A stretch of DNA of 64,000 nucleotides from the NCBI GenBank assembly GCA_947500505.1, contig CANMSL010000019.1:11244-75243 (forward strand), given 5' to 3'. The notes beneath the pieces are model-generated. The model had not been told where the DNA came from. It was given only the letters and a program-made list of their open reading frames with translations, and ran no database searches. Positions 37,739 through 41,706 of this stretch are shown here, piece by piece. Source of the DNA: an uncultured Aquimarina sp. GTDB taxonomy: Bacteria > Bacteroidota > Bacteroidia > Flavobacteriales > Flavobacteriaceae. The position numbers and the translations under genes were made by a program. Each line of letters begins with the position of its first letter. Positions within the stretch are counted from its first letter, which is position 1.

Positions 37739-39565
37739 TCAATATGTAGACTCAATAGAATCGTCTGATAATGTTTTCACGTAGGCAATGAGCGAATTCA
37801 ACTCTTCATTATTAAGTTTTAATTCATCGAAAGGTAAAGTCTGATGTTCTAAATCAAATCCCATTCCACCGCCACCTCCTAGATTATAAAAATTCATCAC
37901 CTCTTCTAAGGTGTCATAAACACCATTATGCATATATGGTGCTGTGCCCGCTGCGTTTCTTACCGTTGGAGTTTTGAACATACCTCTATGCAATTCTTCC
38001 TCAAATTTCCAATAAAAGCCTAAATCATCGTCTAATTGCTTATTTTCTTTTGTTTCGGGAACACCTATAACCTCTTTTTCTGTTTCTTTAAAAAATGGAG
38101 GAACCGTTCCGTTCGTTAAAGGAATAAAATGACAGGTGGCACAGAGTGCTTTACCCATGAAAAGATTAAATCCTTTTTTCTCTTCAGCCGTGAACGTGTT
38201 TTCTTCTCCTCTCATGTTTTTATCAAACTTCGAAGAAAAACCATTTAGTGTAGCTATATAAGATGAAATAGCTCTTATAACATCTGTATTTCTGTTAGAA
38301 ACTCCACCGTAAGCGTCCTTGAACAATTTCACATAGGTTGTATCCTGGAGAATAGCATTAGAAAATTCGTGCACTCCGGAATCAAATTCATTTTTATTAG
38401 TAAATACAGAAGCTATTTGATCTAATAAATTTGCTGATCTTCCATCCCAAAAGAAACTTTTTTGAAATACAGAATTAATTAATGTTGGTGTATTTCGCAG
38501 TAATGGATGCGCTGTATTATCTAAATTACTAACCTTACCATCTGCATACGCTTTTTCAGGAATATGACAGGTGGCACAAGACATCTGCTTCTTTTTAGAG
38601 AGATTTTTTTCAAAAAATAATTTCTCTCCTAAAGCTATTTGCTTTTTAGAAGGATTTCTGTTAGTTGCCGGGGTAAAATAAGCTACATTAAATGAATCTT
38701 CTTCAAAAAATGTAGGTGCATTAAAATTAAAAGGAAACGTATCCTCTGCTTCCCATAATCCACTTTCTTTTCGAATTGACACCCAATTACGAGTAATGGG
38801 ATTCATATAATCTCGAATAAAGGTGAATCTATCGAAACTTTCAAAATCCTTATTTTGATTAATAAAATCAATAGCCTTCGCTATATTGTTTATAAACTCT
38901 TGATCTAGTTTGGTATTTTTGCTTTGAATCAAAAAACCGATTGCTTCCTCATACACATATTGTAAACTTTCCAGAGATACAATAGTTTCTTCAATACCTA
39001 GATGGCTTATAGGAGTATCAAAACCAGAAATACCTAAACTTATAATTCTAAATAATTGTTGATGAGTCGCAACAAAAAAACGTTTTGGGTTTAGTTCTCT
39101 CTTTTTTATATTTTTCTGAAGGTTTACTAATAGCCCCTTTGTAATTCTTATTTCATACCCGAACTCCTCCTCACTTATGTCTCCTTCGTAAATACTCTCT
39201 TCTATTTTTTGAAGTCCCACTGGATTTAGGATTTTACCATTATCCTCTTTATATATAGGTAATGCAGGACCATTGGCTCTATGTCCAACTTCAGGATTTA
39301 AATAAGAGGCAAATGGTTCGGCCTTTTTAAAAGCAATCCTTGCCTGTTTAAAAAGTTTTTTTGCGTTCTCTCCCTGAGAACCCTCTCTTTCCAAGCTATC
39401 TAAATAAGCAATTGAATTGTTTATATTTTCGAGATAAAAGTTTTGTGCAGTTTCCCAATTAGGTCTTGTATTATCAACATACTCTTGTTTTTGTTCTTTA
39501 CAGGAAAACAACAAAAAAGTTAAAGAACAAATTAATAAAAGACTAGTGCTAAACGATGTATTCAT
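37739..39565 (-). CDS. Lipoprotein: N-terminal helical domain plus di-heme cytochrome c peroxidase/MauG-family domain
   Basis: Lipobox LFSC; two CxxCH (CATCH twice); RNTP, FWDGR, FKTPTVRN, PYMHNG. Confidence 0.88.
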   Translation of the reverse strand: MNTSFSTSLLLICSLTFLLFSCKEQKQEYVDNTRPNWETAQNFYLENINNSIAYLDSLEREGSQGENAKKLFKQARIAFKKAEPFASYLNPEVGHRANGPALPIYKEDNGKILNPVGLQKIEESIYEGDISEEEFGYEIRITKGLLVNLQKNIKKRELNPKRFFVATHQQLFRIISLGISGFDTPISHLGIEETIVSLESLQYVYEEAIGFLIQSKNTKLDQEFINNIAKAIDFINQNKDFESFDRFTFIRDYMNPITRNWVSIRKESGLWEAEDTFPFNFNAPTFFEEDSFNVAYFTPATNRNPSKKQIALGEKLFFEKNLSKKKQMSCATCHIPEKAYADGKVSNLDNTAHPLLRNTPTLINSVFQKSFFWDGRSANLLDQIASVFTNKNEFDSGVHEFSNAILQDTTYVKLFKDAYGGVSNRNTDVIRAISSYIATLNGFSSKFDKNMRGEENTFTAEEKKGFNLFMGKALCATCHFIPLTNGTVPPFFKETEKEVIGVPETKENKQLDDDLGFYWKFEEELHRGMFKTPTVRNAAGTAPYMHNGVYDTLEEVMNFYNLGGGGGMGFDLEHQTLPFDELKLNNEELNSLIAYVKTLSDDSIESTY

Positions 39566-39589
39566 GTCTTATTACTCTTTTTAATAAAT

Positions 39590-39624
39590 AAAAAGAATCT
39601 CCATTCTTACATGGAGATCTTTTT
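39590..39624 (-). terminator. Terminator-like hairpin between the PhoX-like and di-heme genes
   Basis: aaaaag-a-atctccat/atggagat-cttttt stem. Confidence 0.6.
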
Positions 39625-39646
39625 ATACCAATTTTTTATTCAAAAA

Positions 39647-41233
39647 TTACCTAGGTAGCCCCTTCAAGATAACAATCTGAGAAGCTTGATCGTCCTCTCT
39701 AGCAGAGTTTGTATGACCATCTAAATTCATAAAATCCGGACTCTCCCAATAATGAGGTTGTAATGCCAATAAGAATGTTCTAGGGATACCTACTTTATCA
39801 GAAATATCTATTAACGAACCAAACTCTCCGCTAAAACCAGTACTGTTATTTGGATCGAGATCTTGACGAACAATAAACTCTAATACTTTACTTTGATTGT
39901 TTCCATTAATATCAGTTTGATATATCTGGGCAGCGTGACCTCTGGCAAAAGAATTTGGATCTTCCTGAACATATATGAAGTTTTCTGTTACACAGATGTT
40001 ATCAGGACTTTGTAATTCTGGTAAATTACCATCCATATTATTCGTATCGGTATTCCCACTAACTATTTGGGTTAATTTTCCAGTCAATGGAGAAGTTTCG
40101 TCTAACTCTAACTTATAAACTGTTCCCCAGTCGTTGTAAGTTCCTCTTCCCGGACCTCTACCGGTTACTGCAAAAAACACGTTTCTTCCATTTGCATCAC
40201 TACCTTTTTGATAATCTACATCTTCTACTCTCATAAACTGAGATGCAAACACATTTGTACAAGCAGTCTCCATTTCATCTTTTGTAAGATCTTTACCATT
40301 AGGGATTTCTACAAATTCTACATCATATGTCTTTCCGAAATCTAATTGACTCTCATTGTAAACTGTATCTGGAGCAACATCTTGTACCCCAATATTACCA
40401 TCAGCATCTATAACACCGTTAGAAACTTGCTTAAATCTTAGCACGTATATTTTACCATTAGTTAAATCATCGTCAGCATTTTCTGAATAATACAAGGTAA
40501 CTTGACCTTCAGAATCACTAGAATCATCATCCCCTCCAATAATCACAGTTTTACCAGAATATGCATCCTTCGGCAGTGGAACTGCATTTTCCCAAGAGAA
40601 TTCACCTAAAGCATCTAATCCAAAATCTGCAGTTGGCGTAGGAGTCTCAATATAAGGATCAATACCCTTTACGTCATAATTAATACTTTCTGAAGCAGAT
40701 AAAAACAAATCCTGAGAACCTCCGTGAATTGCTGCTTCCCACATAGTTCCTGAACATTGTCTGGCAAAATCAGAAACACCCGAATTTAGCAGATAATCTC
40801 CTGAAGTAGGAATTAAATTTTCGTCTAAAAATATTCTTGCTACTGCATAACTATCTTCGCAATTAACAACGTAAATGTACCCATCTCCCGATGGATTTTT
40901 TAAGAAACCAGCCCCGTCGGCAGAACCAGCTAATTGAAATGTACCATCGATAACATCAGGAGTACTAATTAAAGAATATGGCTCTACATAATTAAACTGG
41001 GAAGCCATTGCCACTAAAGGCTTTGTCGGTGATTTATCAGCAAACATCATTGGTTCCGGTTCGAAATCCTGACCATCTTCACCATCCTGACCATCTTCAC
41101 CATCCTGACCATCTGCTCCATCCTGACCGTCTATTCCATCAATACCATCTCTTCCGTCTTCACAGTTTAGTAAAGACACCCCAAGAGTACATATCAATAA
41201 GGCTCTAAAAACAAGTTTTCCTAAATTATTCAT
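39647..41233 (-). CDS. PhoX-like (Fe/Ca beta-propeller alkaline phosphatase family) lipoprotein with collagen-like N-terminal linker
   Basis: Lipobox LLNC; acidic/Cys motifs resembling PhoX ligands: CSG, LGEFSWEN, GDD, RVED, SPDN, QED. Confidence 0.72.
   Translation of the reverse strand: MNNLGKLVFRALLICTLGVSLLNCEDGRDGIDGIDGQDGADGQDGEDGQDGEDGQDFEPEPMMFADKSPTKPLVAMASQFNYVEPYSLISTPDVIDGTFQLAGSADGAGFLKNPSGDGYIYVVNCEDSYAVARIFLDENLIPTSGDYLLNSGVSDFARQCSGTMWEAAIHGGSQDLFLSASESINYDVKGIDPYIETPTPTADFGLDALGEFSWENAVPLPKDAYSGKTVIIGGDDDSSDSEGQVTLYYSENADDDLTNGKIYVLRFKQVSNGVIDADGNIGVQDVAPDTVYNESQLDFGKTYDVEFVEIPNGKDLTKDEMETACTNVFASQFMRVEDVDYQKGSDANGRNVFFAVTGRGPGRGTYNDWGTVYKLELDETSPLTGKLTQIVSGNTDTNNMDGNLPELQSPDNICVTENFIYVQEDPNSFARGHAAQIYQTDINGNNQSKVLEFIVRQDLDPNNSTGFSGEFGSLIDISDKVGIPRTFLLALQPHYWESPDFMNLDGHTNSAREDDQASQIVILKGLPR
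41066..41155 (-). repeat. Five tandem 18-bp units encoding (DGx)10 collagen-like repeat
   Basis: atcctgaccatcttcacc x2 identical, then three diverging copies. Confidence 0.9.
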
Positions 41234-41300
41234 TTTTTAGTTAATTAAGTTATAAGATTTTTTATGTGGTATAAAATTATCTATACTATTTGAAAGGTTG

Positions 41301-41349
41301 GTTAACTAATGATGGTTATTAAGTTAATCGAAGTTTAATTTTAGGTTAT
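41301..41349 (-). promoter_or_regulatory. 11-bp-phased direct repeats upstream of PhoX-like gene (possible Pho-box-type site)
   Basis: GTTAA 41301, GTTAA 41323, TTTAA 41334, GTTAT 41345 (spacing 22, 11, 11). Confidence 0.35.
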
Positions 41350-41587
41350 GAAGTTTTTTTTAATGTTAAATACTTTTACCCCTTTAATGATTATTTGATT
41401 TTTTTAATTCTTTGAAACGAACAGTATAATTAGTAATGAAGAAAATCATAAGCACAAAAAACACCTCAACAACTATTAACAGGAGAATAATAACTGTTTC
41501 AGTCGTCCTCTAAAGCAAAGTATTTGCCAAGTACAACTAAAATGTAGAAAATGATGCACTTTCAGAATTTTGGAAGATTGAGTTAGC

Positions 41588-41706
41588 ATAGGTATAGATC
41601 AAGAATTTAAAACCCTACCGACGGACCCTTTAGTGTTATCAAACAAGAAATAGATGATGTCATAGCATTTCTAAAAAGCTTAAACGATACTATTATAGAA
41701 TATTAA
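41588..41706 (+). pseudogene. Frameshifted C-terminal relic of a second di-heme peroxidase-family gene
   Basis: IGIDQEFKTLPTDPLVLS then, one base missing, KQEIDDVIAFLKSLNDTIIEY*; aligns by eye with the intact neighbour's MGFDLEHQTLPFDELKLNNEELNSLIAYVKTLSDDSIESTY. Confidence 0.7.

Follow-up and report, generated by a model that had tools for sequence, protein, structure and literature searches.

A PhoX-related propeller lipoprotein and its MauG/MbnH-type di-heme neighbor: a conserved gene pair of Bacteroidota in an Aquimarina genome

The gene pair and its two proteins

The subject of this work is a pair of adjacent genes in the genome of an uncultured Aquimarina sp. (assembly GCA_947500505.1), located in a stretch of 64,000 nucleotides (nt) of contig CANMSL010000019.1, which is called the window hereafter and has Aquimarina species as its closest relatives. 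On the minus strand, an open reading frame (ORF) of 528 amino acids coding for a predicted beta-propeller protein is followed, after a gap of 81 nt, by an ORF of 608 amino acids in which an all-helical N-terminal domain is fused to a di-heme domain (Table 1). Both proteins are lipoproteins, because in each of them a hydrophobic signal ends in a Cys that is invariant among the relatives; in the di-heme ORF, the signal peptide ends at C22, kept in 33/33 relatives. The original prediction, made from the letters of the window, had noticed two adjacent and co-directional lipoproteins with a hairpin between them, phased repeats upstream, and the relic of a second di-heme gene. The ORFs, the invariant Cys and the hairpin bear out this description, and the phased repeats are there in two kinds, one coding and one in the promoter region. 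What had been noticed is thus confirmed, whereas the reading attached to it, namely a PhoX-like enzyme with a dedicated di-heme partner, is partly supported.

Regarding the propeller, its sequence identity is 68-91% across the 80 Flavobacteriaceae loci fetched. The window protein alone gave no Pfam PhoX match at E-values up to 10, and direct sequence and profile searches against the sequences of the Protein Data Bank (PDB) returned no match. A relative with 74% identity passes the cut-off of the Pfam PhoX family (PF05787; 25.7 against 24 bits). The profile of the propeller family, run against 1.8 billion representatives, delimits a compact family of 49 clusters at E < 1e-30, and 7 of the 10 weaker matches tested are Pfam PhoX members. 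With diverse PhoX sequences added, hhalign matched the family to Pfam-PhoX proteins at 98.5% probability (E 3e-15, 263 columns); three near-identical canonical PhoX sequences, which hold too little diversity, gave no match. These profile results place the propeller in the PhoX superfamily as a divergent member, in line with the PhoX-like character predicted for it.

An alignment of 26 sequences, comprising the propeller family, intermediates, type-IX-secreted PhoX and the canonical PhoX exported by the twin-arginine translocation (Tat) system, has D106, N124, E126, C160, E182, E215, R335, E337, T357, D411, D425, E470 and Q492 conserved in 24-26 of its members. C160 belongs to a QCSG motif that aligns with NC(A/S)xG of canonical PhoX, and it corresponds to residue 179 of the Pseudomonas fluorescens enzyme (PDB 3zwu), the presumed iron-ligating thiolate. 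The conserved residues are predicted metal ligands, and the propeller itself is a predicted Fe/Ca-dependent phosphomonoesterase. As for its fold, the AlphaFold2 (AF2) model is all-beta with a pLDDT of 82; Foldseek retrieved only generic propellers with a TM-score of ∼0.35 and left PhoX outside the top 50, so the fold adds nothing to the assignment.

The signal of the propeller lacks a twin-arginine motif and is a Sec-type lipoprotein signal up to C24, whereas the canonical flavobacterial PhoX proteins examined carry RR motifs. After the signal peptide, a family of 9-nt repeats codes for ten G-X-D triplets; the match to Pfam Collagen (E 5e-5) is under the cut-off of that family, and the AF2 model has pLDDT values <50 at residues 22-55. 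This predicted disorder suggests that the triplets probably serve as an acidic tether.

The C-terminal half of the second protein matches Pfam CCP_MauG (PF03150) at amino acids 304-604 with 149 bits, and the top NCBIfam matches are MbnH first and MauG second. Its scores are 180 bits against the equivalog cut-off of 363 for MbnH (TIGR04039), and 152 against 444 for MauG (TIGR03791); ten distant relatives also score under both cut-offs, and the protein is placed in a separate subfamily. The top structural match of its model is MbnH (PDB 6e1c). The two CXXCH motifs (C330, C333, H334 and C475, C478, H479) are invariant in 56/56 family members. In the alignments, canonical peroxidases place a Met ligand a few residues past PYFHDG, whereas MauG, MbnH and the di-heme protein have a Tyr; Y560 occupies the position of MauG Tyr294 (the alignment ends at 561/295), is invariant in the same 56 relatives, and is the predicted axial ligand of the second heme. 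In addition, E393 is invariant in 56/56, Q383 is conserved in most relatives, and the position of the inter-heme Trp is occupied by W, Y or H in most of them. The NCBIfam ranking, the structural match and Y560 together assign the protein to the MauG/MbnH type and not to the canonical peroxidases, as the original prediction had it. A second intact CCP_MauG gene was sought in the same genome and none was found, the di-heme gene being the only clear one.

As for the N-terminal domain, the AF2 model places eight long helices at residues 37-268, and Foldseek on the full di-heme model listed di-heme matches only. NCBIfam EfeO matches occur in 4/11 family members (E 3e-7 to 6e-3; 21-30 bits against a cut-off of 270) and fall collinearly on the M75 portion of EfeO; Pfam Peptidase_M75 gives 12.9 bits against a cut-off of 23.5, and hhalign against imelysins of flavobacteria aligned 49 columns, which cover the ARxxFxxxEP helix pair, at E 0.019. 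K80, N98, G117, Q119, R173 and D183 are invariant in 56/56. The GxHxxE motif of the imelysins is replaced by GxQxxE (G117-L-Q119-K-I-E122, with G and Q in 56/56 and E or D in 55/56), which fits the GxxxxE variants already described for this motif (PMC3143127). Because the matches are weak and the motif is GxQxxE, the domain is not called a member of the EfeO/imelysin family, and it is a remote relative at best.

Conservation of the pair and of its control region

The arrangement of the two genes is strictly conserved. Among the 80 Flavobacteriaceae loci, the di-heme gene lies 3' of the propeller gene on the same strand in all 76 for which the contig is sufficient, with a median gap of 75 nt. 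In a sample of 301 Bacteroidota genomes, the propeller occurs in 19 including that of the window, and the other 18 come from further genera and families, another order and a different class; in these 18 genomes, 19/19 loci, at 30-40% identity, show the same arrangement. The two-gene unit is conserved across Bacteroidota, and the gene-neighborhood check proposed with the original prediction comes out in favor of linkage.

The di-heme fusion family is broader than the pair: it was found in 39 of the 301 genomes, 20 of which lack this propeller. In 9 of these 20, the fusion adjoins a different PhoX-family protein with a type IX secretion tail, in two it divergently adjoins purple-acid-phosphatase-like proteins, and in one (locus L153) a PF04185 phosphoesterase lies directly 5' of it. 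The two purple-acid-type loci (L139, positions 3586-6936, and L140, positions 4493-6622) code for proteins composed of Metallophos and Pur_ac_phosph_N domains and a type IX tail. Some genomes hold two modules. Three canonical PhoX genes of the Tat type were examined, and none has a di-heme fusion as neighbor.

Regarding the control region, the gap between the two genes holds a hairpin with a 9-base-pair (bp) stem and a T tail, and the minimum free energy of the whole gap is -17.8. In the relatives, with gaps of 55-130 nt, 61/61 gaps fold better than their shuffles (all z < -2, median z -4.7, median stem 13 bp); the position of the hairpin is shared, but its stem varies in sequence from genus to genus.

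Upstream of the propeller gene, TAAC is strongly oriented in 79 upstream regions, with 296 occurrences against 93 on the opposite strand and spacing peaks at 11, 22, 33 and 44 nt; the layout of the TTAAC array is kept in 52 of the 79 (51/78 related loci and the window). A weight matrix built without the window ranked the window array at the top of the 5.2-Mb genome, with 37.6 bits, and the second and third best sites share one intergenic region on another contig. On one side of this region, and on one strand, lie genes for a PhoR-like kinase, a PhoB-like regulator and a PHO4 transporter of 795 amino acids; on the other side, and on the opposite strand, are a TonB-dependent receptor and a lipoprotein of 387 amino acids. 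The region belongs to contig C1 of the same genome (positions 402245-411870), outside the window. PhoB/PhoP-type regulators bind direct repeats with 11-nt phasing, and TTAACA presumably resembles the half-site of Bacillus PhoP. Since the next-best matches of the genome flank the PHO4-phoB-phoR locus, the TTAAC elements are probably Pho boxes. Between the array and the start codon, TAATTTTA may be a -7 element; its match is to TAnnTTTG, the Bacteroidota -7 consensus. TAACA-like half-sites spaced by 11, 22 or 33 nt were also seen by eye 5' of type-IX-secreted PhoX modules of other Bacteroidota (L150, positions 4720-4800, and L135, positions 6730-6780).

The original prediction took the pair for an undescribed system, and this part does not stand. 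In Flavobacterium johnsoniae, the PhoX_like outer-membrane lipoprotein Fjoh_2478 and the MauG_like protein Fjoh_2477 were presented as one 'PhoX' unit; both are strongly induced by depletion of inorganic phosphate (Pi), with fold changes of 12.5 and 9.6 respectively, and the Flavobacterium counterpart was credited with Pi-inducible phosphomonoesterase activity, 9 of 10 key PhoX residues being conserved in its PhoX-like protein (Lidbury et al. 2020, ISME J, PMC8115612). Later, the F. johnsoniae phoX alone failed to confer activity on a phoX mutant of Pseudomonas putida; phoX and the gene of the MauG-like peroxidase were found to be operonic in all Flavobacterium genomes, and it was suggested that the peroxidase may be needed for function (Lidbury et al. 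2022, PNAS, PMC8812569). Because the propeller matches at 36-43% identity in the 301-genome sample come from Flavobacterium, the window is regarded as carrying the marine-clade counterpart of this described unit.

Finally, the flanks of the pair hold a fossil and two further genes. Among 3086 six-frame fragments of the window, those at 41582-41650 and 41611-41703 are the two best non-self matches to the hidden Markov model of the di-heme family; they are adjacent on the plus strand, collinear in the profile, with one frameshift between them and a stop at the equivalent position. Once joined, the two fragments score 79 with the intact C-terminus, compared with 22 ± 4.6 for shuffles, and their nearest matches are C-termini of di-heme proteins from distant relatives rather than the adjoining gene. 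The relic claimed at the outset is real, and it shows that a second module once decayed at the locus. The further claim, that the propeller was flanked by two di-heme genes, is something we only infer, because the fossil is on the opposite strand, measures ∼40 codons, and does not align with the homologous region of the closest relative fetched (91% identical protein); nor does its region align in the four related Aquimarina loci compared. The fossil does not show that two helpers served one propeller.

Divergent from the propeller gene, a GAF-HisKA-HATPase histidine kinase gene lies at 41781-43022 of the window (plus strand). A kinase gene at that position occurs in Aquimarina and close relatives only, being duplicated in two of these, and for this restricted distribution it is placed outside the conserved module. 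Convergent with the di-heme gene, a DUF2400/TIGR02757 gene lies at 36872-37678 (plus strand), and it has the same position in about one third of the 80 loci. MauA and MbnP are absent among the immediate neighbors (the PhoX-like, histidine kinase and DUF2400 genes), in a search of the locus that did not extend to the rest of the genome.

Table 1. Features of the propeller/di-heme locus, in window coordinates
Feature	Coordinates	Strand	Basis or remarks
PhoX-superfamily beta-propeller lipoprotein (assigned), 528 amino acids	39647..41233	-	ORF, hhalign, conserved residues, all-beta AF2 model
EfeO/imelysin-like N-domain (remote) fused to MauG/MbnH-type di-heme domain, lipoprotein, 608 amino acids	37739..39565	-	
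Propeller signal peptide up to lipobox Cys C24	41162..41233	-	C24 in 31/31 relatives
9-nt tandem repeats coding for ten G-X-D triplets, probable acidic collagen-like tether	41048..41163	-	
Intercistronic hairpin with T tail, terminator- or attenuator-like	39596..39619	-	Position kept, sequence divergent in relatives
Candidate Pho box array, TTAAC-like direct half-sites, 11-nt phasing	41297..41362	-	64-129 nt 5' of start codon
Candidate Bacteroidota -7 promoter element TAATTTTA	41272..41279	-	Block conserved in Aquimarina upstream alignment
Remote EfeO M75/imelysin-like all-helical N-domain, ∼amino acids 35-295	38681..39463	-	
Di-heme CCP_MauG domain, amino acids 304-604	37754..38656	-	CATCH motifs at C330 and C475; Tyr560
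Fossil C-terminus of second di-heme gene, ∼40 codons, one frameshift	41582..41706	+	

Possible roles of the di-heme protein

The di-heme protein is best read as a dedicated accessory factor that probably activates the phosphatase, and within this reading assembly of the iron cofactor, itself given less than even confidence, is put slightly ahead of modification of a residue. One phosphate-starvation promoter would transcribe both genes, and partial termination at the conserved hairpin would let a fraction of the transcripts reach the di-heme gene, so that the phosphatase would be made in excess of its helper; such an excess would agree in direction with the two fold changes of the Flavobacterium genes. 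Tat-exported PhoX folds before export. The Sec-exported phosphatase, unlike it, would fold in the periplasm, and the di-heme protein would make it active after export: the heme domain would oxidize Fe(II) with peroxide, and the EfeO-like domain would hold Fe(III) and supply the Fe/Ca site with it.

Three observations favor oxidation and delivery of iron: the EfeO-like domain, the unrelated phosphatases found as partners, and the Tat-type PhoX genes without a helper. In particular, that unrelated phosphatase folds share one helper argues for a shared cofactor need and not for one modifiable residue, and two of these folds are iron(III) enzymes. It is possible, if less likely still, that the fusion is a new extracytoplasmic metallochaperone, in which a peroxide-driven Fe(II) oxidase is joined to an Fe(III)-holding domain for assembly of the iron sites of Sec-exported secreted phosphatases; its clients would be PhoX-like propellers and purple-acid-type enzymes, which become lipoproteins of the envelope or enter the type IX system.

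Modification of a residue is favored, instead, by heme ligation of the MauG/MbnH type. In this alternative, the di-heme protein would be a maturase: a bis-Fe(IV) state formed with peroxide would oxidize the PhoX-like protein at one residue or several, whether by hydroxylation, by cross-linking or by chemistry of the kynurenine type, and so provide the enzyme with a ligand or cofactor on which it depends. The part of the N-domain would be limited to docking the substrate. The Tyr at the MauG Tyr294 position, the aromatic residue kept between the hemes in most relatives, and MbnH and MauG as nearest families, with the structure pointing the same way, are what such an enzyme would have, and MbnH itself modifies MbnP, a metal-binding partner encoded next to it (for a review, see PMC11951088). 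The authors of the Flavobacterium work proposed this reading (PMC8812569), and nine of the ten key PhoX residues are kept there (PMC8115612). However, the comparison of partner-linked with partner-free PhoX clades revealed no aromatic, Cys, His, Met or Lys specific to the partner-linked ones; the differences are mostly extra acidic residues such as D137, D256 and E424, so no candidate modification site is found among the clade-specific residues. Moreover, members of one helper family stand beside unrelated phosphatase folds, and neither MauG nor MbnH has anything comparable to the EfeO-like domain. A maturase is somewhat less likely than iron loading. The original prediction had named maturation and iron loading side by side under the idea of a dedicated partner: the dedicated partner is the best reading, and both of its forms still stand.

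Several points weigh against the favored accessory role, and against iron assembly in particular. His/Tyr heme ligation is the hallmark of oxidizers of protein residues, such as MauG and MbnH, and it does not typify ferroxidases. The resemblance of the N-domain to EfeO is distant, far under the cut-offs of the family, with GxQxxE and not GxHxxE. The requirement of the helper for phosphatase activity is itself something we infer; the failure in P. putida could stem from lipoprotein sorting, as its authors noted (PMC8812569), and orthology of the propeller to Fjoh_2478 is deduced from matches at the level of the genus and not from that sequence. In 8 of the 39 genomes with the fusion, no phosphatase was identified among the neighbors examined, which are only partly annotated. 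Finally, a Sec-exported PhoX clade represented by ten loci has no intact helper adjacent, one di-heme fragment being present there, and at least one genome of this clade has no fusion anywhere. Periplasmic folding alone does not demand a helper, then, given this clade, and the proposal that every Sec-exported PhoX needs one was rejected on the same ground. These helper-free proteins (L158-L167) are from Flavobacteriaceae, have 524-991 amino acids, and bear IGDFTSV-like motifs in their N-termini; they could serve as a built-in control when the helper hypothesis is examined.

Two roles other than activation were weighed too. The di-heme protein might be a protective or maintenance peroxidase that clears H2O2 or keeps the iron ferric, shielding the Cys-ligated Fe/Ca site and being dispensable for its assembly. 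The fold and the peroxide-site residues E393 and Q383, which are common with bacterial cytochrome c peroxidases, would suit this role, and both lipoproteins would co-locate at the envelope. Still, the strict phylum-wide linkage and the fused EfeO-like domain exceed what general defense needs, and the sole clear CCP_MauG gene of the genome is apparently under Pho control; moreover, detoxification is not a known function of the His/Tyr type. A protective role is improbable.

Less probable still is that the pair forms a single redox enzyme with a substrate other than a phosphate ester, for instance a reduced phosphorus compound oxidized at the propeller with the hemes as electron path. The linkage is conserved, a heme domain of this kind is capable of long-range electron transfer, and promiscuous phosphite chemistry of alkaline phosphatases is mentioned in one report (PMC12704751); against this, the residue set universal to the PhoX superfamily is intact, and phosphomonoesterase activity inducible by Pi depletion was ascribed to the Flavobacterium counterpart (PMC8115612).

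As for the significance of a helper role, Flavobacteriaceae rank among the foremost degraders of organic matter in the sea, and enzymes of the PhoX type, a main path of organic phosphorus remineralization, link phosphorus to iron supply in the ocean. If dependence on the helper is true, gene surveys based on phoX only would misjudge activity, heterologous expression without the partner would fail, as seen with the Flavobacterium enzyme, and phosphorus acquisition would have a second layer of dependence on iron and peroxide. The pair offers a tractable case both for how Sec-exported metalloenzymes acquire Fe(III) and for the role of the many uncharacterized MauG-like proteins; the question of mechanism is directly testable, and it bears on the coupling of phosphorus and iron in the sea.

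Comparison with known systems

Compared with canonical PhoX (Pseudomonas fluorescens, PDB 3zwu and 4amf, PF05787), the window propeller keeps the universal Asp, Glu, Arg and Gln residues and the Cys aligned with Cys179; it differs in having a Sec lipoprotein signal in place of the Tat signal, and a dedicated neighbor gene that the Tat-type PhoX genes examined are without.

In MbnH/MbnP and in MauG with pre-methylamine dehydrogenase, as at this locus, the gene of a di-heme enzyme whose second heme has a Tyr ligand, predicted in the case of the window protein, adjoins that of its presumed target protein. Unlike MbnH and MauG, the window helper is a lipoprotein with an extra EfeO-like domain of 270 amino acids, and its partner is a PhoX-type propeller and not MbnP or MauA.

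Imelysin-like proteins nearly always pair with peroxidases in iron-uptake loci, and a few fusions of the two are known (Xu et al. 2011, PMC3143127). The EfeO/EfeB and imelysin-peroxidase modules resemble the window unit in combining an imelysin-like domain with a heme peroxidase, but the window unit has a phosphatase in place of the permease or of the TonB receptor.

In conclusion, the closest system is the PhoX-like/MauG-like operon of Flavobacterium, in which the gene of a distantly PhoX-related outer-membrane lipoprotein likewise precedes, on the same strand, that of a c-type heme protein resembling MauG; Pi induction was demonstrated there, whereas in the window a Pho-type promoter is predicted. 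The two-gene system is already described in that genus, and the window holds a marine-flavobacterial copy of it, which is set apart by a propeller of 36-43% identity, by its place in a clade of marine Flavobacteriaceae, and by the collagen-like G-X-D tether. The two papers on Flavobacterium make no mention of the hairpin, of the N-domain related to EfeO, of the Tyr at the ligand position, or of other phosphatases associated with the helper; new here are the EfeO-like domain and the linkage throughout the phylum, together with the presence of the same helper beside other secreted phosphatases.

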